A stretch of 64,000 nucleotides of DNA from Terriglobia bacterium (GTDB lineage: Bacteria; Acidobacteriota; Terriglobia; 20CM-2-55-15): the NCBI GenBank assembly GCA_965218585.1, contig CBDCLE010000024.1:64001-128000 (forward strand). The letters are read 5' to 3'. Below the pieces are notes generated by a model that worked only from the letters and a program-made list of their open reading frames with translations, was not told the DNA's origin and ran no database searches. Of this stretch, positions 1 through 12,097 are shown piece by piece; position 1 is the stretch's first letter, and every line of letters begins with the position of its first letter. The translations under genes were made by a program, and so were the position numbers.

Positions 1-145
1 CGGGGACGGGTTCATCCCCTTCGTCAACAGGTGTGCAGTGATCAGCCGGCATGGCCTGTGCACTCACTGGCAAACAGCACTCGCCAATCGCCGCAGTCAC
101 CAGTCCCAGCGAGACGACCGATGCCAATAGGATTGATTTCCTCAT
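1..145 (-). CDS. N-terminal part of a secreted Cys-containing protein (runs off the window)
   Basis: Own translation from ATG at 145: MRKSILLASVVSLGLVTAAIGECCLPVSAQAMPADHCTP..., open to the window edge, with a signal-peptide-like start. Not in the ORF track. Confidence 0.5.
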   Translation of the reverse strand, partial: MRKSILLASVVSLGLVTAAIGECCLPVSAQAMPADHCTPVDEGDEPVP

Positions 146-324
146 GGTCCTGTACTTAGACGCTACTATAGTTTCAGCCCGTCAATCAACTTTCTTGCAC
201 TTCGAATCCAGGCCTTGCTGGCCGCGGTCGCCTTCCGGCAATCAGGTGTTGATGCCATGGGCGTTGATAGGCGCGTTGATTTACGTTCCCGACGTACGAT
301 ATAAACATTCGGCGAGTTGCGCTT

Positions 325-1770
325 ATGCTCCTGCATATCAACCATTTCCGGAAAGGTCGGGCCAGTGTCGCAAGCGACGTCGTGTCGACGCTGCTCTCCC
401 TGTTTGAAGACGAGCAACTCGACAGAAAAATCCTGCCGCATTTGAACGTTCATCTGGACTGGGTCCAGTACAAGAACAACTTCCGAGAAGCAGTCGACCT
501 TCGGAAAGCGGTGCGTGACGGGCAGGATCTGCCGCTCGTCGAACTCGTCATTGACGAGCGTCAGGTCTGCAAGGACACCTTGAGAGCAGACATGACCAGA
601 GTTCTCGGCGAGGTTCGGTCCGATCCCGTAGAGGATGGCCGGCACGTCGCCCTCGAAACCTTTGGTCCGGGACGAGAGAGTATCATCTGGAATTTCGACA
701 TGTTGTACTGGCACTACCTCGCCCAGTGGGAACAATTTTCAGGTCGGGAATATGAGAAGGCGCTACCGTCCGGGTCATCAGACGGTCACAACCCGGTTGC
801 CATCAAGGACTCCGTGGATGAATTCTGGAAACTGCTCCAGGATATGGAGAGTAAGAATCAGCTTCCTGAGGAGTTCTTCGTCATGGAAATCGGTGTGGGT
901 ACCGCCTCTCGCGCACACCAGTGGCTCGACCTTTTAAAAGAGTTGGATGAAGAACGGGGCAGTCAGTACTATCCAAAAATCCGCTTCCTGCTTGCCGATT
1001 ACGCTATGGCGACTCTGGATCGAGCTCGGGAGAAGCTCAAGGACCATAGCGAGGTCACTAGCTTCATTGTCGTTGACGCTATCGACCCCTTCAAATCGCT
1101 TTCGTTCCTCCGCTACAAGGTGCTGTATATCCACCTGACGAATGTCTACGACAACCTGCAGACAGACGAGATCGTTCTCAGGGATGGCCGCTATTTTTTT
1201 GTAGAAGTCCGGGCCTACATCAAGGCCTCAGCGGTTGAAGCGATTTCGGGCAAATACGGAGTGGGATCAGGCGATCTGGTCAGAACAGTCAATCGTCTGT
1301 TAGACGTGGGGCCGGATCATTTTTCCGAAGTCGATGACGGCGCTGCTTTCTGGCAGGAGGTTTGGGCTGCTGTTCACCTTGAGGAAAGACTTGTCGCGGT
1401 TGACAGCCTTTCGGAAGCTCAATTACCGTCAGGTATGAGGGCGTCGCATCTGGAGGAGCTTGTCGGGGATGGATCGACGAACATTCGGTTCCACCTGAGT
1501 TCGGGTGCGGTTGAGAGTTTCGCCAATACGATTCCTCTCTTACATCCGCAGGGTTACCTGCAGGTGCAGGACATCTTTGTCACCGATTTGGCCGACTATC
1601 TCCAGGGTTTTCGAGGGCCCGGGAAGATGGACGGTTCCATCGTCAATTGGGTCAACGGGGCGCTGCTGGCCGAGGTCGGAGAGCAGGCCGGATACGACGT
1701 CCACTTTGCGCCTTTCCGTTACAGAGAAGGTTCGAGGACGTCGATTCTCTACACGACTCAAAGGGAGTAG
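325..1770 (+). CDS. Class I SAM-dependent methyltransferase-fold protein (MidA/NDUFAF7-like), function unknown
   Basis: 481 aa. Motif I-like VMEIGVGTA, acidic residue after beta2 (LLADY), VVDA, and TNVYDNL resembling the MidA-family NE..DAL motif. Confidence 0.65.
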   Translation: MLLHINHFRKGRASVASDVVSTLLSLFEDEQLDRKILPHLNVHLDWVQYKNNFREAVDLRKAVRDGQDLPLVELVIDERQVCKDTLRADMTRVLGEVRSDPVEDGRHVALETFGPGRESIIWNFDMLYWHYLAQWEQFSGREYEKALPSGSSDGHNPVAIKDSVDEFWKLLQDMESKNQLPEEFFVMEIGVGTASRAHQWLDLLKELDEERGSQYYPKIRFLLADYAMATLDRAREKLKDHSEVTSFIVVDAIDPFKSLSFLRYKVLYIHLTNVYDNLQTDEIVLRDGRYFFVEVRAYIKASAVEAISGKYGVGSGDLVRTVNRLLDVGPDHFSEVDDGAAFWQEVWAAVHLEERLVAVDSLSEAQLPSGMRASHLEELVGDGSTNIRFHLSSGAVESFANTIPLLHPQGYLQVQDIFVTDLADYLQGFRGPGKMDGSIVNWVNGALLAEVGEQAGYDVHFAPFRYREGSRTSILYTTQRE

Positions 1771-1799
1771 TGGCTCCTGTCGGCTACTAATACGGAATA

Positions 1800-2801
1800 A
1801 TGAAATTACCAATCTTACCCACAGCAGTTGTCGGAAGCTATTCAATGCCCGGTTGGCTGGAACGACTCAAGACCGAATACTCTCTCCGGAAGATCAGTCG
1901 TCAGGAGCTGGACGAAATCCATGATGCGGCTCTTAAGGCGGCTATCAAGGATCAGGAGAATGCCGGAGTCGACATCATCAGTGATGGGGAACTCCGACGG
2001 GACAACATGATCGACTATTTCGCCGAGCGCCTGCCCGGCGTGCAGATCGACCATGCTTCAAAGAAGTTTTATTACGACTACTACGACAGTGTCGTCAGGG
2101 GAAAGATCCCCGTGTCGTCCCTTGGCCTGGTCGATGACTTCAAGTTCCTGGCCGCCAATACAGTTCGGGAAACGAAGTTCTGTGTCACCGGTCCACATTC
2201 ATTAGTGAAACGCATTCGCAACGAGTATTACCCAAGCGAAGAAGAGTTCGCCCTCGATCTGGCCCGCGTAATGAATCTCGAATTGAAGGAGTTGGCGAAG
2301 GCCGGAGCTAAGCGTATTCAGGTTGATGAGCCGTACTATTCTGGCTTTCCGACTGATCTGACGTGGGGCGTTAAGGCGTTGAACACTCTGGTCGACGGTG
2401 TGGACGCCGAGATCGGGTTGCACATCTGCTATGGCAACCGGTATGGGAAGCCTTCGTGGGCGGGAAACTACCGATACCTGTTCCCGACGATTCTCGAAGC
2501 CCAGGTGCATGAACTCACGTTGGAATTCGCCTGGCGAGGTGGCGAAGACCTGGAGCTCTTCCAGGAATTTCCGAATTCGTTCAGACTGGGTGTTGGTGTC
2601 ATCGATGTGAAGAGTGACGCGCCAGAAACCCCGGACATTGTCGCTGAGCGCATCCGACATGCGCTCAAGTTTGTGCCAGCGGAAAGGGCCGTTGTCCTTC
2701 CTGATTGCGGCTGCCACCATCTGGCGCAGCCTGTCGCGTTTGCCAAGCTTCGCGCCATGGTCGAGGGGGCCGAGATCGTCCGACGATCGCTGGAAGGCTG
2801 A
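1800..2801 (+). CDS. Core (single-barrel) cobalamin-independent methionine synthase family protein
   Basis: 333 aa. TAVVGSY, AGVDIISDGELRR, TGP, IQVDEP; Zn ligands HIC, LEF, PDCG. No N-terminal MetE barrel. Confidence 0.9.
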   Translation: MKLPILPTAVVGSYSMPGWLERLKTEYSLRKISRQELDEIHDAALKAAIKDQENAGVDIISDGELRRDNMIDYFAERLPGVQIDHASKKFYYDYYDSVVRGKIPVSSLGLVDDFKFLAANTVRETKFCVTGPHSLVKRIRNEYYPSEEEFALDLARVMNLELKELAKAGAKRIQVDEPYYSGFPTDLTWGVKALNTLVDGVDAEIGLHICYGNRYGKPSWAGNYRYLFPTILEAQVHELTLEFAWRGGEDLELFQEFPNSFRLGVGVIDVKSDAPETPDIVAERIRHALKFVPAERAVVLPDCGCHHLAQPVAFAKLRAMVEGAEIVRRSLEG

Positions 2802-2933
2802 TTCGCTTTCAACGAATCGGCTACGCAAAGTTTTCGCCAAAGCTCCCATTTTTTCCTGCACGCACACAGACTCTGCTCCCAGTTTCATTGGTATAATTGC
2901 GACACCCTTTCCTTTCCATAGGAAACGCCTCGC

Positions 2934-3395
2934 ATGCCTCAGAAAAAGAAAAATATTACCCTCCAACTGTTCTATGAAGAGTTTCAAAGCCGCATGGGTG
3001 CGCTTGAAAGCGGTATGGGTGGGGTTGAAGGCCGTATGGGTGGCCTGGAAAACGAAATGACCGGTCTCAAAGACGAAATGAGTGGGCTCGATGGCCGAAT
3101 GGGCAGCCTCGAATCCTCCCAGCGCTCGGTTCTGGCCCAGCTGGCGACGATCAACAGGCGCCTGGTATCGCTTGAAGAGATTACGTCGCGTCTGGGCGAT
3201 CGTCTCGATACGCTCCATAGCCTGTGTGAGGGTCTGGGCAAGGGATTTGAGAACCTTACAGATGAGTACCATGCGATTACCGCCGGCTTGAAGCGGCTCG
3301 AAGAGCGGTTCGACCAGTTTGAAGCGGACCGGATTACCGAACGTATCGCGTCTCTTGAACGTAAGGTCGAAGCTCTGGAACGAGGCCGGAATTAG
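2934..3395 (+). CDS. Heptad-repeat coiled-coil protein
   Basis: Repeats RMGALES/GMGGVEG/RMGGLEN/EMTGLKD/EMSGLDG/RMGSLES. TGGTATAAT extended -10 lies upstream (~2889-2897). Confidence 0.7.
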   Translation: MPQKKKNITLQLFYEEFQSRMGALESGMGGVEGRMGGLENEMTGLKDEMSGLDGRMGSLESSQRSVLAQLATINRRLVSLEEITSRLGDRLDTLHSLCEGLGKGFENLTDEYHAITAGLKRLEERFDQFEADRITERIASLERKVEALERGRN

Positions 3396-3428
3396 CCACA
3401 CCGATAGGGTCCTTCGTAATAGCTCTTC

Positions 3429-4361
3429 CTACCTAAGAAACGCCACGACAAGCGCCAGCGTAATCAGCGAGGCTGCCGTGGAAAGGACGACGGTGGCGCC
3501 GACCGTGGAGGAGAGTATCTCGGAGTCCTCGGCGAAGAGGTATGCGTTGACGCCGGTTGGCTGAGCTGCGACAAGGACACCAACCCCGGCCCAAAGAGGG
3601 CTGAGATCGAAGACGAGAAAAGCGAGGACGAACACGGCCAGCGGATGAACGATGTTCTTGAGGAGGACCAGACTGAGAGCTTCTCGCAATTCGCCACGAA
3701 GCGAATAGCGCGAAAGGGAAGCCCCGAGAGTGAAAAGGGCACACCCGGGGGCTGCAGAACTCAGCATCTCTGCAATTGAGTTAAAGGGTTCGACGATACC
3801 GAGACCCGCCAGGTTAATCGTGAGTCCTAGGAGCAGTCCCAAGATCACGGGGTTCGCGGCGTGGGTTTTGAGAACTGAAACGAGGAGACCACCCGGCCCT
3901 TGGTTCATTCCGCCCGCGATGCCTTCAATGGATTTTGCCAGGAAAAACAGAACAGCCGCGTTACAGGAAAGAATCATGTACATCGGCAGTTCGCCCGCCT
4001 CGCCATAGACCAGAAGCACGATAGGAATCCCCATAACAACTATGTTGGAGTAAGAGGACCCCAGGCCAAAGACAGACAGTTTTTCCAAAGGATGGCCGAA
4101 GAACAACCCTCCGATCCCCGCACCGGCGCCGTAGGCAACGAGGGTGCCGCCGTAGTATGCACCCATCAGTGGCCACTCAATGACTTCAGAGAAAGAGACG
4201 TTTGCCATGGCCTGAACCAGCATGACGGGTATGGCGATTCGGAATGTGAAGCGGGAGAGTCCACGGATTCCTTCTTTATCGATCACCCGGATCCATCCAA
4301 CGAGGTAACGCACAAGAATGAGTCCGAAAACGGGAGAGGACGATTGTATGAGATTTCCCAA
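3429..4361 (-). CDS. AEC (auxin efflux carrier) family transporter
   Basis: Multi-TM protein with SYSNIVVMGIP, NPVILG, ALFTLGASL, AAQPTGVNAY. Start probably TTG 4361 (ORF is open to 4400). Confidence 0.85.
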   Translation of the reverse strand: MGNLIQSSSPVFGLILVRYLVGWIRVIDKEGIRGLSRFTFRIAIPVMLVQAMANVSFSEVIEWPLMGAYYGGTLVAYGAGAGIGGLFFGHPLEKLSVFGLGSSYSNIVVMGIPIVLLVYGEAGELPMYMILSCNAAVLFFLAKSIEGIAGGMNQGPGGLLVSVLKTHAANPVILGLLLGLTINLAGLGIVEPFNSIAEMLSSAAPGCALFTLGASLSRYSLRGELREALSLVLLKNIVHPLAVFVLAFLVFDLSPLWAGVGVLVAAQPTGVNAYLFAEDSEILSSTVGATVVLSTAASLITLALVVAFLR

Positions 4362-4611
4362 AGTACCTTTCTTGCGCCACGGGGTTTTTCCCGGCCTCAA
4401 AGATCTCGCGCAGGATAGCGCATACGGCTGCGGTCACGCCATCGTCCGGTCGAGGGGCGAGTATGTGGTCGCGAGTGCAAGTTTCAGCGAATAAATGATC
4501 CAGTCGGACTTAAATCAGCTAAATACATTAATTACTCTTTTAGTGGGTGCCGATTCAAGGAGTATTAAGTTATCAGTGAACTATTTTTCAGATCTTTAGG
4601 CTTGATTAAAC

Positions 4612-4631
4612 ATATAAAGATATATTTATAT
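4612..4631. promoter_or_regulatory. Palindromic operator, probable SahR site overlapping the promoter
   Basis: ATATAAAGATATATTTATAT (ATATAAA-N6-TTTATAT), directly upstream of the ArsR-MTase gene, with TTGATT at 4602-4607. Resembles the described SahR motif. Confidence 0.7.
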
Positions 4632-4638
4632 AGACTCT

Positions 4639-5661
4639 ATGGTTTTAGCGTCCGATCTTCCCCTGTTGAGTGCCGTGCATCACTTGCGAGCGATCGCCGA
4701 ACCTACACGTCTGCGATTGATCCATCTTCTGGCGCACGGAGAATTGACCGTTACTGAGATCTGCCAGGTACTGGGCCAGAGCCAACCCCGAGTCAGCCGA
4801 CATCTGAAACTGCTCTTGGACGGTGGCTTTGTAACGCGATTTCCAGAAGGTGCGTGGGTTTTTTACCGTCTGGCCGACGGCAGGGAACGAGGGGCTCCCG
4901 GGGATCTGGCGAGCATGCTCATCGAAAGGCTCGACGAAAGGGATCCTGTGATTGCGGGCGACCTGGAACGATTGACAGAGGTCAAAGCTGTCCGTGCCGG
5001 GGAAGCTGCCGCTTACTTTGAAGCCCATGCGGGGGAATGGATCCGGGTCCGCGCTCTCTATCAGCCCGTAGCCGAAGTCGAGACTGCCATGCTCGACCTT
5101 CTCGGGTCCGAGCCGATCGAATTTCTGGTCGACTTCGGAACCGGTACGGGACGCGTCCTGGAACTTCTCAGTGGTCTGTATCAACGCGCCGTAGGGTTCG
5201 ATACAAATCACGCGATGCTCGGTGCGGCCCGTGTGAATCTGGATCAAGCTCGGATACGCCATGCGCATGTCCAGCACGGAAACCTCCTTTCTCTGCCACG
5301 TGTGTTAGATGTGCCCGACGCTGTTGTCATCCATCAGGTTCTGCACTACCTCGACAATCCCGCGGCAGCTGTTCTTTCCGCTGGAAGGCTCCTGCAGCCC
5401 GGTGGCCGACTCCTGATCGTCGATTTTGCACCGCACCAGCTTGAATTCTTGCGTACCGATCACGCTCACCGCCGATTGGGCTTTTCTGATGACGAGGTTT
5501 TCGAGTGGTGCCGGGCCGCGGGCCTTGAAGCAAAAGAAGTACGTCAGGTGAGGCCGCTGCCTGAGAAGTCCGGTGAGGTGGCGTCACCTGCCGTCTCGTT
5601 GTGGCTTGCCACAAAATCGATGCACGCACATTCGTTCGATGATCTGGAGAGGGCCGGATGA
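4639..5661 (+). CDS. sahR: ArsR-family HTH plus SAM-binding methyltransferase domain regulator (SahR-type)
   Basis: AIAEPTRLRL...QSQPRVSRHLKLL HTH; VDFGTGTG, HQVLHY, PGGRLLIVDF. Translationally coupled to metF. Confidence 0.85.
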   Translation: MVLASDLPLLSAVHHLRAIAEPTRLRLIHLLAHGELTVTEICQVLGQSQPRVSRHLKLLLDGGFVTRFPEGAWVFYRLADGRERGAPGDLASMLIERLDERDPVIAGDLERLTEVKAVRAGEAAAYFEAHAGEWIRVRALYQPVAEVETAMLDLLGSEPIEFLVDFGTGTGRVLELLSGLYQRAVGFDTNHAMLGAARVNLDQARIRHAHVQHGNLLSLPRVLDVPDAVVIHQVLHYLDNPAAAVLSAGRLLQPGGRLLIVDFAPHQLEFLRTDHAHRRLGFSDDEVFEWCRAAGLEAKEVRQVRPLPEKSGEVASPAVSLWLATKSMHAHSFDDLERAG

Positions 5662-6632
5662 GCCGGGTTCATGCCGATACCGCCTCCCCGCCCCGCGTGT
5701 CGTTTGAGTTTTTCCCTCCCAAAACGCCCCAGATGAAAACTAACCTTTGGCATTCGGTTCAGCGACTCGAGCCACTCGGGCCTTCGTTTGTTTCGGTGAC
5801 TTACGGTGCCGGGGGGAGTACCCGGGAACGGACCCACGACACGGTGAAGCGGATCGTTCGGGAAACCTCATTGGATGTTGCCGGACACCTGACATGCGTG
5901 GCCGCTTCGCGAGAGGAAGTAAATGCGGTAGCCCAGGATTACTGGGACGTCGGTGTGCGACACATCGTGGCCCTCCGTGGCGATCCACCGGCCGGAGCGG
6001 GCAACACGTATGAACCCCATCCGGAAGGCTACGCCACGAGTGCCGACCTGGTCGCGGGCATCAAACAGTGCGCAGCTTTCGAGGTCAGCGTTGGTTGCTA
6101 CCCTGAAGTCCATCCCGAAGCAACCAGCCCTCAGGTCGACCTGGATGTGCTCAAACGCAAAGTGGATGCGGGTGCCGACCGCGCAATCACGCAGTTCTTC
6201 TTCGATCCGGAAATTTTCTTGCGGTTTCTGGACAGGGTCCGAGCCGCAGGCATCACGATCCCCGTTGTCCCGGGTGTAATGCCGATCGCAAACTTCAAGA
6301 ACATCCAAAAGTTCGCTGCTAAGGTCGGAACGCACATCCCGAAACGGTTGACTCAAGTGTTCGAGGGTCTCGACGATGAGCCGACAACCCAACCGCTGGT
6401 GGCTGCCAGCTGCGCCGCCGAGCTCTGCCTCGATCTTCGCGAACAGGGCGTCGATGATTTCCATTTCTATACTCTGAACCGGCCCGAACTGACTGCCGCA
6501 ACATGTCGAATCCTTGGTATTAAAGCCGCCGCCGCTAGTATCAAGGCCGCCGGCCCCGGTGTTAAGGCCGCTGGCCCGGAAGTCAAGCCCGCCGCCGACG
6601 GGTCAGTTCCGACCCAGGCCCAGGAATCATGA
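5658..6632 (+). CDS. metF: 5,10-methylenetetrahydrofolate reductase
   Basis: [44 protein letters not shown]. Confidence 0.97.
6519..6599 (+). repeat. About four imperfect 21-bp tandem repeats forming the MetF C-terminal tail
   Basis: Encodes [27 protein letters not shown]. Confidence 0.7.
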
Positions 6633-9600
6633 CGCACAGCGAGCGCGTCGTACTGCTTCACAGGGAGGCTGCTTCGCGCATCCTGGTCCTTGACGGTGCG
6701 ATGGGGACGATGATTCAGCAGCACAAGCTGACTGAGGCAGATTTCCGTGGCGATCGCTTCGGCGAGCACGGTAAGGACATATGCGGTAATAACGATATCG
6801 TCGCCCTGTCTCAGCCCGAACTGTTGCGCGAAATCCATACCGAGTACTTCAGGGCCGGTGCCGACATCGGCAAGACGAATACCTTCAACGCGAACCCGAT
6901 ATCCCAATCGGATTACGGCATGGTGGATCTGGTGTATGAGCTCAACCATGCCGCCGCCACGATTGCCAGGGAAGCTGCATACGAGATAGAGGTCGAAGAC
7001 GGCCGTCCCCGTTTTGTCGCGGGTGTGATGGGGCCGACGAACCGGACAGCCTCGATGTCTCCAGATGTTCGTGATCCTGGATTTAGGAACGTCACCTTCC
7101 AAGATTTGCGGGAGGCATATGGCGCTCAGGCACGCGCACTTGTGGATGGGGATGTCGACATCCTGCTGTTGGAGACAATTTTCGATACGCTCAATGCCAA
7201 GGCCGCCTTGTTTGCAATCGACGAGCTTTTCGAGGAACTGGGCACGACCTTGCCGGTCATGATTTCGGGAACGATCACGGACCGGTCGGGCCGGATCCTC
7301 TCCGGGCAGACAGTCGAAGGTTTTTGGAACTCCGTGCGTCACGTTGAGCCGTTTTCAATCGGTCTCAACTGCGCCCTCGGGGCCAAAGAACTCCGCCAAT
7401 ACGTCGAAGAGTTGTCTGAGTTGGCCGATTGTCTGGTCAGTGCCCATCCGAACCTGGGTCTACCCAATGAACTGGGTGGTTACGACGAACCTCCTGAAAC
7501 GATGGCAGCTCTGGTCAGCGAATTTGCGGATTCCGGTCTCGCCAACATCGTCGGAGGATGTTGCGGAACGACCCCGGGCCACATCGCCCAGGTCGCAAGA
7601 GCAGTTGCCGGCGTCACGCCGCGTGTGCCTACGGCACCGAAGAACATGTTGCGTCTTTCCGGTCTCGAACCCCTCAACCATGATCCCGATCGAGCCGCTG
7701 AACGGACTGCGACGTTCATCAACATCGGGGAGCGCGCGAACGTCACCGGTTCGGCGAAGTTCAGAAAGCTTATTGAGGCCGACGATTTTGAAGCAGCTCT
7801 GGAGGTGGCCCGCCAGCAGGTTCAGAACGGAGCCCAGATCATCGATGTCAACATGGATGAAGGCATGCTCGATTCGGAGGCGGTCATGGTGAGGTTTCTC
7901 AATCTCATCGCCGGTGAACCGGACATCGCTCGGGTTCCGGTCATGATCGACTCGTCAAAATGGTCGGTTATCGAAGCCGGACTCCGAGCCGTACAGGGTA
8001 AGGCGATCGTAAACTCGATCAGCCTCAAGGAAGGCGAAGCGCCGTTCCTTCGGCAGGCGCGGCTGGCGAAGCGTTACGGAGCCGCCGTAGTCGTGATGGC
8101 GTTCGACGAAAACGGCCAGGCCGGCTCGGCGGACGGTAAGGTCGAGATCTGCACCCGTTCCTACAAGCTGCTGACCGAGGAAGTCGGCATACCTCCTGAA
8201 GACATCATTTTCGATCCGAACATCTTTGCGGTGGCGACGGGAATCGAGGAACACAACGAATACGCGATTGCTTATATCGAAGCGGCCCGCCGTATCAAAG
8301 CGACGTTGCCACATGCTCATGTTTCAGGTGGTCTTTCGAACCTCTCGTTTTCCTTCCGTGGCAATAACCGGGTCCGCGAAGCCATGCATTCGGTGTTTCT
8401 CTATTACGCGATTGATGCAGGCATGGACATGGGGATCGTCAATGCCGGCCAGTTGGGGATCTATGAGGACCTCGACCCCGAACTTCGGGAGCAGATCGAA
8501 GACGTCATTCTGAACCGAAAGCCGGACGCCACTGATCGACTCGTCGAAAGTGCCGAAAGTTTGAAGGGGCAGGCGAGCGCGGATACCGGTCCGGATCTTG
8601 CCTGGCGCGACCAGCTCGTCGAAGCGCGCATCGAACACGCCCTTGTCCACGGGATCGCCGAGTTCGTTGTCGAAGACACCGAGGAAGCTCGAAAGGAAAT
8701 AGGCAGCCCCCTGGAAGTCCTGGAAGGTCCGTTGATGGACGGTATGAACACGGTCGGCGATCTCTTTGGCGCAGGAAAAATGTTTCTTCCCCAGGTCGTC
8801 AAGAGCGCGCGCGTGATGAAAAAAGCCGTTGCCCATCTGGTCCCTTTCATGGAGCAGGAAAAACTGGAAAAGGGGGACACATCGGAAACGGCGGGACGCA
8901 TCGTGCTGGCCACGGTCAAGGGAGATGTTCACGACATCGGCAAGAACATCGTCGGCGTCGTCCTTCAGTGCAACAACTTCGAAGTTGTGGATCTGGGTGC
9001 GATGGTTCCGGCCGCGGAGATTCTCGAAACAGCACGCGATGTTGGGGCGGACCTGATAGGCCTGTCCGGTTTGATTACTCCGAGTTTGGAGGAGATGGGT
9101 CATGTCGCTGCGGAAATGGAAAGGCAAGGTTTTGACATTCCGCTGCTGATCGGTGGTGCGACAACCAGTCGCCTCCACACGGCCGTTAAAATCAGTCCGA
9201 ATTATTCAAAGGGCCCGACGATTCACGTGTCCGACGCCTCGCGGGCTGTGGGAGCCGTCCAGAACCTGGTGTCCCCCGAGCAGCGCGGCCGATACCTCGG
9301 TGAAGTCAGCGAGGAGTACAGCCGGATCCGGGATCAACACTACGCGAAAGACGCGGGGCAGGGCACTCTGACTCTGGCCCAGGCACGAGCCAACGGGTTG
9401 CACGCCGATTGGTCCGGATACACCCCGCCGCGCCCCCGCTTCACGGGACTCAAGGACTTTCCAGACTACGACCTCAAGGAACTGGTCGACTACATCGACT
9501 GGGGACCGTTCTTCCACGCCTGGGAATTGTCGGGACGTTACCCCGAGATCTTGAAGGACCCGAAGAAAGGAAAAGCGGCCCATGCGCTGTTCGACGATGC

Positions 9601-10360
9601 ACAGGCCATGCTCGAGCGGATCGTCGAGGAAGGTTGGATTTCCCCGCGCGGCGTGATCGGTTTCTGGCCGGCGAACAGTTCAGGGGACGACATCGTTGTC
9701 TACACAGACGATGAACGCACCACATCGCGGGGTGCCTTCCACACGTTGCGACAGCAGTTGGTTAAGGCGTCCGGTCACAGGAACGTCGCGCTTGCGGATT
9801 ACATTGCCCCTGAAGGATCAGGAGCTGCTGATCATGTCGGTGGTTTTGCTGTAACGGCAGGGCATGGTGAGACCGCACGCGTGGAGGGCTTCAAAAGCGA
9901 ACACGACGACTATTCCGCTCTCATGCTGCAGGCCCTTACAGACCGGTTTGCCGAAGCCCTGGCCGAACGGATGCACGAGCGGGTCCGCCGCGAGTTTTGG
10001 GGTTATTCACCTGAAGAAAACTTCAATGCCGGAGAACTCCTTGCCGAGGGCTATCGCGGCATTCGACCGGCGCCGGGCTATCCCGCACAACCCGACCACA
10101 CGGAAAAGGGCTTCCTCTTCGACATCCTGGAGGCCGAATCCAGGACGGGAATAAAACTAACAGAAAGCTACGCTATGTGGCCCGGTGCGTCGGTCAGCGG
10201 GCTCTACTTCAGCCATCCCGAAAGCCGGTACCTCAGCGTGGGTAAGATCGCAGCCGACCAGGTGGAAGATTACGCGAAACGCAAGGGCATGAGCCGTCCG
10301 GACGTCGAACGCTGGTTGGCCCCGATACTTGCATACGTGCCCGCGCGTGACGTGGCCTAG
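6629..10360 (+). CDS. metH: Cobalamin-dependent methionine synthase
   Basis: 1243 aa. [37 protein letters not shown] (B12-binding), RPAPGYPA. Confidence 0.98.
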
Positions 10361-12097
10361 CCCGCATATTTCACCGATAGGACCAGAAAAGGCCGCCCTG
10401 TCTGGCATAAAGCGTTTTGAAATAAACGCTTAACAAGCCAAACGGAGACGGCCCTTATGAGAACAGAGTGTAACCAAACGACGTTCGAATTTCACGGACT
10501 TCTTCAACGAAAAGTGAAGGCGCGTTTTGACGGCGGAAAGATCACCTCCGACGCTGGGGTTCTGCTGTTGAGGGAAGTGGAAAAGCGAACGGGTCTGATC
10601 GCCGGACTGGCCGAGTGTTTCAGGGATTACCGGGACGCGAGGTTGATCGAACACACGGTGAGCGAGTTATTGGGGCAGCGCGTCTACGGACTCTGTCTGG
10701 GCTACGAGGATCTGAACGATCATGACCAACTGCGGACCGATCCGATGCTGGCCGTGGCGGTGGATAAGGCCGATCCACTGGGGGAGAAGCGGCGGCAGGC
10801 CCGAGACCGGGGAAAAGCGTTGGCGGGCAAGTGTACGCTGAACCGGTTGGAACTGACCGGGGAGCAAGTCGATGGGAAGGAACGGTACAAGAAGATTGCC
10901 ATGGACCCGGACAAGATCGACCGCTGGATGGTGGATGCATTTGTGGCGGCTCACGGATCGGCGCCCGAGGAGATTGTTCTGGACCTGGATGCGACCGATG
11001 ATCCGATCCATGGCCATCAGGAAGGACGGTTCTTTCACGGCTACTACGGCAACTACTGTTATCTGCCGCTCTACATCTTTTCGGGAGAGCATCTGCTATG
11101 CGCCCGGTTGCGGTGCTCCAATGTCGACGGTGCGGACGGCGCCGTCGAGGAATTGAACCGCATCATCGGCCAGATCCGGCAGAGCTGGCCGGAGGTGTCG
11201 ATTATCATCCGGGCCGACTCGGGCTTTTGCCGGGATGAATTGCTGAGTTGGTGCGAGGCCCACCAGGTCGATTACGTGGTGGGTCTGGCCAAGAACGATC
11301 GGCTCAAGCGCGAGATCGCTGAATCGATGAGTCAGGCCGAAGCCGAGTTTAACGACACCGGGAAACCGGCGCGGGTGTTTAACGATTTCCGGTATCGCAC
11401 TCGGAAGAGCTGGACCTGCACCCGACGCGTCATCGGCAAGGCCGAGTTCCTGGAGAAAGGCGCCAATCCTCGATTCGTTGTGACCTCACTGTCGCCGGAA
11501 CGCCTGGACGCCCGCGCCCTCTATGAAGACTTTTACTGTGCGCGGGGCGACATGGAAAATCGCATCAAGGAACAGCAGTTGGATCTATTCGCCGACCGGA
11601 CCAGCGCGGCAACCATGCGCGCCAATCAACTCCGGCTCTATCTGTCCTCGGCCGCCTACATGCTCCTGCACGCGTTACGCCGTCTGGGACTGAAGAATAC
11701 CGATCTGGCCCGCGCTCAGTGCCAGACGATCCGCTTGAAGCTCCTCAAGATCGGAGCTCAAGTCCGTCTGACGGTTCGCAACATCTGGATCTCCATGTCG
11801 GAAGCCTATCCCTACGCCGAGGTCTTTGCCCTCGTCCATCGAAACCTGCAGGCGCTTCCTCTGCGCTGCTGAGAACCGACCCGATCCCCTGCGCCAAAAT
11901 CGACTCGCTCTTTTCGGCTCCGCCGAGGTTTGTCTCAGTGCGTTTCGTCACCCTCTTCTGAACCCGAAAACGCAGCAACTCCCGCTTGTCGACACCGCCG
12001 AGTCACGCCACACATGCCCAATTCGAACCCAGATCCTCCCGAATCCGATTCTTACTGCCCAAATCCCCCTGATCGCCGGACTGGTGAAACATGCGGG
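10361..12097 (+). mobile_element. IS1380-family element, complete copy 1 (1737 bp)
   Basis: IRs CCCGCATATTTCACC / GGTGAAACATGCGGG. CTAG duplicated at 10357-10360 and 12098-12101. Confidence 0.93.
10457..11872 (+). CDS. IS1380-family DDE transposase
   Basis: FDGGKITSDAG, GYEDLNDHD, LDLDATDD, RADSGF, YCARGDMENRIKE. Confidence 0.95.
   Translation: MRTECNQTTFEFHGLLQRKVKARFDGGKITSDAGVLLLREVEKRTGLIAGLAECFRDYRDARLIEHTVSELLGQRVYGLCLGYEDLNDHDQLRTDPMLAVAVDKADPLGEKRRQARDRGKALAGKCTLNRLELTGEQVDGKERYKKIAMDPDKIDRWMVDAFVAAHGSAPEEIVLDLDATDDPIHGHQEGRFFHGYYGNYCYLPLYIFSGEHLLCARLRCSNVDGADGAVEELNRIIGQIRQSWPEVSIIIRADSGFCRDELLSWCEAHQVDYVVGLAKNDRLKREIAESMSQAEAEFNDTGKPARVFNDFRYRTRKSWTCTRRVIGKAEFLEKGANPRFVVTSLSPERLDARALYEDFYCARGDMENRIKEQQLDLFADRTSAATMRANQLRLYLSSAAYMLLHALRRLGLKNTDLARAQCQTIRLKLLKIGAQVRLTVRNIWISMSEAYPYAEVFALVHRNLQALPLRC

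Follow-up and report, generated by a model that had tools for sequence, protein, structure and literature searches.

The question raised by the locus described here is where a single-barrel methionine synthase obtains the methyl group that it passes on. The locus stands near the start of a stretch of 64,000 nucleotides (nt) from a Terriglobia bacterium of the phylum Acidobacteriota (assembly GCA_965218585.1, contig CBDCLE010000024.1, positions 64,001 to 128,000), which as a whole is referred to below as the window, and it consists of two adjacent genes, the first encoding a protein of 481 amino acids (aa), here named X481, and the second a "core" methionine synthase of 333 aa, here called the core. 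The methionine synthase step ties the one-carbon metabolism of folate to all methylation that depends on S-adenosylmethionine (SAM), and on it depends whether a microbe requires vitamin B12. To our knowledge, the methyl source of the "core" enzymes has been unclear since 1999, the only proposals being corrinoid proteins and the unexplained MesX. The initial annotation of the window had suggested a folate-independent thiol-methylation system, in which X481 supplies or activates a donor such as SAM or another sulfonium. The analysis presented here points to a partner that is indeed new and to an undescribed B12-free route to methionine, which still draws on folate. In the reading that we favor, with a probability of roughly 0.4, X481 and the core together form a methionine synthase independent of B12, X481 being the donor side and methyl-tetrahydrofolate (methyl-THF) the source of the methyl group.

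Conservation and Folate Context of the X481–Core Pair

The gene neighborhoods of X481 were surveyed at 32 genome loci, 28 from the homologue search and four from relatives of the window genome, the locus of the window itself and a duplicate of L002 being left out; 30 loci, in which X481 is followed by 150 nt of DNA or more, were assessable, as were 74 of 80 metagenome loci. Of the 30 genome loci, which come from Acidobacteriota, Actinomycetota, Chloroflexota, and Eremiobacterota, 25 have the core directly behind X481 and on its strand, and all 74 metagenome loci do, so that the two genes are a conserved unit. The distance from the end of the X481 match to the start of the core match has a median of 8 nt in the metagenome loci and of 37 nt in the genome loci, and in one locus the two open reading frames (ORFs) overlap. 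At four loci (L003, L012, L025, and L028) X481, and in L028 also the core, is split across two or more frames, and these copies are either pseudogenes or assembly errors of metagenome-assembled genomes (MAGs).

A gene of the methylenetetrahydrofolate reductase (MTHFR) type, i.e. MetF/MetV, flanks the unit on the same strand in 26 of 30 loci from genomes and in 42 of 53 from metagenomes, L028 being counted as a miss though such a gene stands before its degraded X481. In Actinomycetota and Eremiobacterota the order is a cysteine-rich MetV-like ORF, MetF, X481, and the core, and the core is immediately followed by MetK in six loci of Actinomycetota (L017, L018, L019, L021, L024, and L026). In Acidobacteriota, X481 and the core are followed by a MetF::MetV fusion of about 500 aa (PF02219 plus PF12225) and then often by formate-THF ligase (Fhs). 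That one and the same pair stands in two independent arrangements speaks for selection rather than inheritance alone. PurU-like, PabB/PabC-like, and PfkB genes were each found near the pair in single loci.

Further ties to the reductase come from fused proteins of 650–1600 aa: among the 150 representatives listed, 13 combine an X481-like domain with MTHFR, in one order or the other. Eight of these (P0292, P0313, P0314, P0316, P0319, P0347, P0366, and P0382) carry an N-terminal MTHFR-like barrel followed by the X481-like part and align with one another over their full length, with a PF02219 match in four; two (P0267 and P0276) have the order MTHFR–DUF5981–X481, and three (P0337, P0344, and P0387) the order X481–MTHFR. 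Of the ten fusions that were looked up, five are from bacterial MAGs (Planctomycetota, Elusimicrobiota, Binataceae, and Omnitrophica), and the records of the other five give no taxon. An MTHFR review assigns a regulatory domain to eukaryotic MTHFR only, and bacterial fusions of the kind seen here go unmentioned in the available portion of its text (PMC13001107). An X481-like domain also occurs in a protein of 2863 aa from an Omnitrophica MAG (P0310), at residues 1787–2270, together with AceK regulatory and kinase domains and an HMGL-like domain.

Some loci hold additional genes of methyl metabolism. Just upstream of X481, a distant Meth_synt_2 paralogue is present in 10 of the 80 metagenome loci, and in the one of them that was scanned (L112:1835-4838) a LigM-type vanillate/3-O-methylgallate O-demethylase (778.5 bits) and a PRK06520-like paralogue (270.4 bits) are followed by X481 and the core; together with the comparable paralogue in nine more loci, this points to the methoxy groups of lignin aromatics as a possible supply of methyl-THF for the module. 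In five actinomycetotal loci (L017, L018, L023, L024, and L026), a gene resembling the homocysteine-binding part of MetH stands beside a second, distant MTHFR-like gene, a few kilobases (kb) from the MetV–MetF–X481–core–MetK operon, which makes these loci methionine and one-carbon islands.

Distribution Relative to MetH, MetE, and MTHFR

X481 was found in nine of 41 relatives of the window genome; eight of these belong to the 24 other genomes of its taxonomic family, its four congeners all being without a match. A sample of 300 further genomes from across the phylum, with only five candidates scored in each, yielded no X481. No N-terminal barrel of MetE was detected in the 25 genomes of the family, and outside the family one relative has a full MetE and three have a split MetE. 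In these last three, which belong to the same class (L170, L171, and L172 in G331, G337, and G221), the N-barrel and catalytic-barrel genes adjoin each other and encode about 330 aa each.

Within the family, MetH (PF02965) is missing from five of the nine X481-positive genomes and from one of the 16 X481-negative ones (G313, 91% complete), although these counts are not independent, as the genomes are related to one another. The five are G310, G320, and G326 (100, 98, and 99% complete), which form one genus, and G316 and G324 (94 and 68% complete); a full MetH protein used as the query likewise gave no match in any of them. The three genomes of the first genus contain a single PF02219 match each, namely the MetF::MetV gene beside X481 and the core. 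In some near-complete genomes, X481 and the core thus appear to be the only methionine synthase candidate. MTHFR of the DUF5981 type is present in five of the nine X481-positive and in none of the 16 X481-negative family genomes.

The Core: A Zinc/Homocysteine Barrel Without the Folate Contacts of MetE

The core corresponds to the whole Pfam domain Meth_synt_2 (PF01717), which it matches with E = 1.2e-42 and 146.9 bits (cut-off 21) over profile positions 1–323 of 324, and it consists of one barrel only, a weak match to Meth_synt_1 of 34.5 bits being the cross-match that the two barrels usually show. When 20 X481-linked cores are aligned, there is no variation at the zinc ligands H208, C210, E242, and C303 or at the homocysteine-binding residues S13, E64, and D176, the equivalence of all these to MetE residues having been derived from a pairwise alignment with the Thermotoga maritima enzyme and from the residue list in the available text of PMC7857596. 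With its zinc and homocysteine residues intact, the core looks like an active homocysteine-activating enzyme. The description as a MetE-like single barrel with zinc ligands and without an N-terminal barrel, given in the initial annotation, therefore holds, as does the absence of the MetE motif of the GWVQSYG type: in the pairwise alignment, the "GWVxSYGSRC" hairpin of MetE is absent and KKFYYDYYDS stands at the equivalent position.

The residues through which MetE of T. maritima contacts folate are, in the part of the structural report that was available, Trp539, Glu583, Arg493, and Arg496 (Pejchal and Ludwig, PMC539065). These were mapped onto the core by a HMMER pairwise alignment of the sequences rather than by structure, the chain number being the number in the paper plus 32, as checked on His618/Cys620. 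Trp539 is replaced by an invariant arginine (Arg138), Glu583 falls inside an eight-residue insertion of MetE that is missing from the core, Arg493 corresponds to a gap, and Arg496 to Tyr95. With these contacts replaced or missing, the alignment predicts that the core cannot bind methyl-THF in the manner of MetE. A separate second barrel was not found either: in the window genome, which is 95.5% complete, the sole match to Meth_synt_1 (PF08267) is the core itself at 25–35 bits; no such barrel occurs in eight related X481-positive genomes, and there is no strong match in five X481-positive genomes from other phyla, four of which have MetH.

In its overall sequence, the core remains below the cut-off of every NCBIfam methionine synthase model, the best being PRK04326 with 293.5 bits against 406, and the nearest solved structure is 3rpd (175.6 bits by HMMER), with the C-terminal barrels of MetE at about 105 bits. 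In a quick maximum-likelihood tree of 46 rows, 22 X481-linked cores lie on one side of a branch with a Shimodaira–Hasegawa-like approximate likelihood ratio test (SH-aLRT) support of 92, separated from a group made up of a MetE C-terminal barrel and of split-MetE catalytic subunits from three relatives (99), as well as from a PRK06520-like clade and the clade of paralogues from Bryobacterales and the window genome (100). Of the phylogenetic placement proposed in the initial annotation, the separation from split MetE and MetE stands, and the tree, which is composed without named sequences of MesA–D or epoxyalkane:coenzyme M transferase, is silent on the remainder. The paralogues in the window genome (G000) are six further Meth_synt_2 proteins of 372–409 aa on contigs C1, C2, C3, C7, and C26 (L031–L036), with neighbors that include a pyrroloquinoline quinone (PQQ) dehydrogenase, OsmC, an NmrA-like gene, a TPMT-like methyltransferase, and transposases; an X481 homologue stands beside none of them.

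X481: A Nameless Family with a Class I Methyltransferase Fold

X481 has no match in Pfam or NCBIfam at E ≤ 0.01, and at E ≤ 10 the sole match is Methyltransf_12 with E = 0.12; against the chains of the PDB, its sequence gives chance-level matches only. The family is nevertheless large: 1594 of 8000 candidates scored are homologous at E ≤ 0.001, and a profile search of 1.84 billion representatives returned 1054 matches at E ≤ 0.001, 596 at ≤ 1e-10, and 224 at ≤ 1e-30, the 1054 matches being clusters at 50% identity. The 120 homologues that were listed are 410–526 aa long, have no precomputed Pfam domain, and are called "hypothetical" wherever they are named at all.

The reading of X481 as a neighbor with class I methyltransferase motifs, 29 nt upstream of the core, is borne out by the ORF coordinates and by an alignment of 27 homologues. 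Motif I is E188-x-G190-V191-G192, in which E188, G190, and G192 are invariant, as is the acidic residue D225; D251-A252 and N273-x-Y275-D276-N277-L278 are invariant or nearly so. The segment NVYDNLP, which resembles motif IV, is invariant across phyla and is kept in the MTHFR-fused family, in which the second and third glycines of motif I are alanine or serine. There is no invariant cysteine or histidine, which argues against a metal or iron–sulfur site.

The AlphaFold2 (AF2) model of X481 has a predicted local distance difference test score (pLDDT) of 87.5 and a predicted template modeling score (pTM) of 0.87. When it was searched with Foldseek, 409 matches at E ≤ 0.001 were obtained, headed by MidA (5zu0 and 5ztz) and COG1565 proteins (1zkd, 4f3n, and 4g67) with E of about 1e-8. 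Consistent with that, VIA-align gave 477 PDB chains at Z ≥ 8, the best 50 of which all have a methyltransferase fold (Z 14.7–17.6); the longest aligned stretches, of 274–284 residues, belong to 1zkd_B and 5ztz_A (Z 17.6, root-mean-square deviation 3.3 Å), and many class I methyltransferases come next at Z 15–17. Residues 1–107 form an extra N-terminal domain outside these structural matches. In the ESM Atlas, the neighbors of X481 are clusters labeled "putative SAM-dependent methyltransferase", with PF02636 on 15–18% of their members, and hhalign of the X481 profile with ten canonical MidA proteins of relatives gave a probability of 85% (E = 6.4e-6, residues 158–319); in it, motif I and the acidic residue that follows strand 2 line up, and NVYDNLP is matched with NEFxDALP of MidA. 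By this model and these profiles, X481 is a protein of the class I methyltransferase fold nearest to MidA/COG1565, and remote homology with MidA/PF02636 is likely. The label "MidA-like" given earlier is thus upheld as far as fold and profile are concerned. With PF02636, a separate canonical MidA was found in the window genome (contig C9) and in 34 of 41 relatives, which makes X481 a distinct family.

Relation to Known Methionine Synthase Systems

The closest parallel is the MesD/MesX system, which likewise consists of a single-barrel enzyme of the MetE type, found in aerobic bacteria with its gene beside that of a partner of no known activity, and which, like X481 and the core, usually co-occurs with MetH and is sometimes the sole methionine synthase, or in the case of X481 and the core the sole candidate for one. 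The partners differ in that MesX is DUF1852 (PF08908), and X481 has no Pfam match and a methyltransferase fold. The core reaches 198 bits against PRK09121, which we presume to stand for MesD, at a cut-off of 392. The available text of Price et al. 2021 (PMC7857596) describes MesD/MesX as independent of MetF, whereas X481 and the core are linked to MTHFR; it also treats 3rpd as MesD and sets, as the criterion for this family, at least 390 BLASTP bits to ACIAD3523, or about 55% identity. As 3rpd is a MesD other than ACIAD3523, the 175.6 HMMER bits of the core indicate only the scale of the difference. Taken together, these scores suggest that the core lies outside the MesD family. The initial annotation had seen neither a corrinoid protein nor MesX at the locus, and this stands for the neighborhood, in which the B12-binding domain nearest to the pair is that of MetH and none of the adjoining genes is MesX; for the genome the claim is left where it was, because the PF08908 search, run without a positive control, was empty in the window genome, in the controls, and in all 156 genomes searched, and is uninformative.

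In MesA, MesB, and MesC, as is proposed here, a core barrel takes the methyl group from a separate protein, but these donors are corrinoid proteins, and no gene for a corrinoid or B12-binding protein stands beside X481 and the core. The models PRK00957 and PRK06052, which we assume to represent Mes families, score 156.8 and 19.9 with the core, far below their cut-offs. Split MetE resembles the pair in being a two-gene, B12-independent, and presumably pterin-dependent methionine synthase, and PRK04326, the best NCBIfam model for the core, passes its own cut-off in two of 14 control genomes; split MetE differs in having a separate Meth_synt_1 barrel, a partner that the window genome lacks, and X481 is not a TIM barrel. 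Canonical MetE has the same residues for zinc and homocysteine as the core, and its net reaction is probably the same, but the core is half its size and has its folate contacts missing or replaced. MidA/NDUFAF7/COG1565 (Methyltransf_28) provides the best structural matches for X481 and a profile match over its methyltransferase core; X481 differs from it in showing about 10% identity, in its gene context, and in going undetected by PF02636 at E ≤ 10.

X481 is, as far as its sequence tells, a partner family outside MesX, the corrinoid proteins, and the MetE N-barrel, which agrees with the earlier suggestion of a new partner type. A MidA-like or methyltransferase-fold partner is undescribed in the available main texts, as distinct from supplements, of the literature on core methionine synthases and on COG1565/MidA-like proteins, including PMC7857596, GapMind 2026, and fast.genomics. 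Two other candidates were set aside as different systems, as far as the available portions of the reports describe them: the MetE fusion of Phaeocystis with polyketide synthase (PKS) and CzcO domains (PMC10861871) and MtgBCD (PMC12478193).

Proposed Mechanism and Alternatives

In the model that we favor, a reductase of the MetF/MetV type, for which the gene usually adjoins the pair or is joined to X481-like domains, would make 5-methyl-THF, which X481 would hold or activate as the methyl donor, taking the place of the second barrel of MetE and of the folate-contacting loops that are missing from the core. The core, having bound zinc and homocysteine, would methylate the latter, and in Actinomycetota MetK would then make SAM from the product. 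Three points of this model are inferred, namely contact between X481 and the core, methyl-THF as the donor, and its binding by X481. A more specific version, which is conceivable but doubtful, has the methyltransferase fold re-used for 5-methyl-THF instead of SAM and docked on the bare barrel, so that with MetF/MetV it would form a channeled machine leading from methylene-THF to methionine.

It has to be noted that several observations weigh against this model, the main weakness being that X481 keeps the SAM-binding motifs (motif I, D225, D251, and NVYDNLP). We know of no class I methyltransferase that uses methyl-THF as a methyl donor. The one folate link seen among the best 50 of the 477 structural matches is a glycine N-methyltransferase with 5-methyl-THF (3thr, by its title), in which the folate is presumably a regulator. 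The five genome loci in which the core does not follow X481 are all from Bryobacterales (L008, L009, L010, L012, and L025); there, a MetF::MetV fusion comes straight after X481, one copy of which is broken, and no orthologous core is present, these genomes having only core paralogues of 36–40% identity in catabolic contexts, adjoining IclR or GntR regulators and tannase-like and GcvT-like genes. The MTHFR fusions tie X481-like domains to the reductase without showing any core, and a clean fusion of X481 to the core was found only once (P0241, 865 aa, a single member), five further run-ons (P0257, P0273, P0285, P0375, and P0389) having been rejected as frameshift-ridden gene calls. In the second MetH-less genus (G316 and G324) the MTHFR matches are weak, at only 27–29 bits; G328 has MetH and no MTHFR match, which suggests assembly gaps; and four relatives without X481 have MTHFR of the DUF5981 type as well. 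The window genome has both MetH and a canonical MetF, and its MetF::MetV gene is on a different contig. Finally, no B12 or SAM riboswitch matched above the gathering score upstream of the pair in 11 loci, and a riboswitch scan of positions 1–12000 of the window, 324 nt of which lie upstream of X481, gave two chance-level matches only. Structure prediction has been neutral: the AF2 model of P0241, made from a block alignment, has a pLDDT of 80.4, a pTM of 0.57, and values below 50 in the C-terminal part of X481, with no confident packing of the domains, and a complex prediction with X481 and the core each given as an alignment scored 0.00, a verdict neither for nor against.

The fusions, most of which place the catalytic domain before X481, and the Bryobacterales loci that hold X481 and MetF::MetV without the core could also mean that X481 is an accessory subunit of the reductase, either a SAM-sensing feedback domain like the C-terminus of eukaryotic MTHFR or some other input module, and the conserved SAM-type motifs and the co-occurrence with DUF5981-type MTHFR in the family would fit this well. 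We regard it as unlikely all the same, because the core is the more constant neighbor (99 of 104 loci, versus 68 of 83 for MTHFR), because no MetF::MetV gene stands beside the pair in the window, and because the core, devoid of the MetE folate contacts, would be left without a donor and would have to get its methyl group by some way not yet seen. Moreover, sensor pseudo-enzymes usually lose the motif IV-like segment, and that of X481 is invariant across phyla and retained in the fused family. The same complete motifs, the class I fold, the "putative SAM-dependent methyltransferase" labels of the ESM Atlas neighbors, and the MetK gene behind the core in six actinomycetotal loci are what one would expect of an ordinary SAM-dependent methyltransferase with its own substrate, fed by a methyl-supply cassette of MTHFR, methionine synthase, and MetK. 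This we consider distinctly improbable, as it demands that the core use methyl-THF alone despite lacking the contacts for it, no candidate substrate gene is conserved beside X481, and a fusion of MTHFR to an enzyme three steps away would be unexpected.

Because MidA and COG1565 proteins give the best structural matches (Z 17.6 over the longest stretches) and NEFxDALP of MidA aligns with NVYDNLP, X481 might alternatively be a MidA-type protein methyltransferase, acting as a maturation factor that modifies the core or MetF post-translationally. Yet the glutamate of the MidA NEF segment is a valine in X481, the window genome and most relatives encode a canonical MidA separately, and tight spacing with, and fusion to, a supposed substrate would be unusual for a modifying enzyme, so that the chance of this being correct seems slight. 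Slighter still, in our view, is that of the folate-independent system first proposed, in which X481 would make or activate a non-folate donor (SAM or another sulfonium) by analogy with MesD/MesX. It would account for a core without folate contacts whose best solved relative is of the MesD type, and for the one MetH-less genus with weak MTHFR matches only, but it is contradicted by the MTHFR genes that flank the pair, by the MTHFR fusions, and by the three near-complete genomes without MetH or MetE in which the sole MTHFR lies within the operon. The donor named earlier fails on its own terms as well, since SAM or another sulfonium as the net source of methyl groups cannot yield net synthesis of methionine, as set out in the available part of Price et al. 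2021 (PMC7857596).

Organization of the Window

The features of the locus are compiled in Table 1.

Table 1. Coordinates of the X481–core pair and of the genes that follow it in the window
Feature	Position	Strand	Basis and remarks
X481, 481 aa, ATG start	325..1770	+	ORF call; candidate methyl-donor-side partner, uncharacterized, class I methyltransferase fold, MidA-like
Spacer between X481 and core, 29 nt	1771..1799	+	Sequence read
Core methionine synthase, 333 aa, ATG start	1800..2801	+	ORF; single zinc/homocysteine barrel (Meth_synt_2)
Coiled-coil ORF, 153 aa	2934-3395	+	ORF directly after core
ArsR-type helix-turn-helix (HTH) and methyltransferase-domain regulator (SahR-like)	4639..5661	+	Pfam HTH_5, Methyltransf_11; context only
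Canonical MetF (E. coli-type MTHFR)	5658..6632	+	PF02219 318.3 bits; TIGR00676 330.4 bits, above cut-off; context only
MetH, cobalamin-dependent methionine synthase, 1243 aa	6629..10360	+	ORF; B12-binding and Met_synt_B12 matches inside; context only

A terminator-like site was looked for in the spacer and none was found. The initial annotation had placed a sahR–metF–metH cluster about 2 kb away, in agreement with which the regulator gene begins 1.84 kb past the stop codon of the core and is followed by metF and metH; the name SahR comes from that annotation and is taken over here as an assumption, no tool having assigned it. Between the coiled-coil ORF and this cluster lies a Mem_trans carrier gene on the minus strand. 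The coiled-coil product consists almost entirely of heptads with a repeated G-x-x-E-x-x-M-x-G, matches many coiled-coil families weakly, and was encountered behind the core at no other locus. Directly 5′ of the SahR-like gene, at 4590-4635, there is an AT-rich near-palindrome, ATATAAAGATATATTTATAT, which may be the operator of the regulator; by eye, nothing comparable was found before X481 that would make for a shared operator. Just upstream of the window (G000:C24:57710-63735) and divergent from X481, there is a heavy-metal efflux operon of the CusCBA type (OEP, HlyD_D23 with HMBD, and ACR_tran).

Significance

A large protein family without a name, of 1054 clusters at 50% identity, is the near-constant neighbor of one clade of core enzymes in abundant soil phyla and is fused to MTHFR in other phyla. 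If X481 and the core do form a methionine synthase, a new donor-side module for the chemistry of methyl-THF would have been found, and predictions of B12 dependence and of methionine auxotrophy for MAGs of Acidobacteriota and Actinomycetota would change. If, in addition, X481 does hold 5-methyl-THF, it would be the first protein of the class I methyltransferase fold to use folate, and methionine synthesis would have a third, independent solution alongside MetH and MetE.

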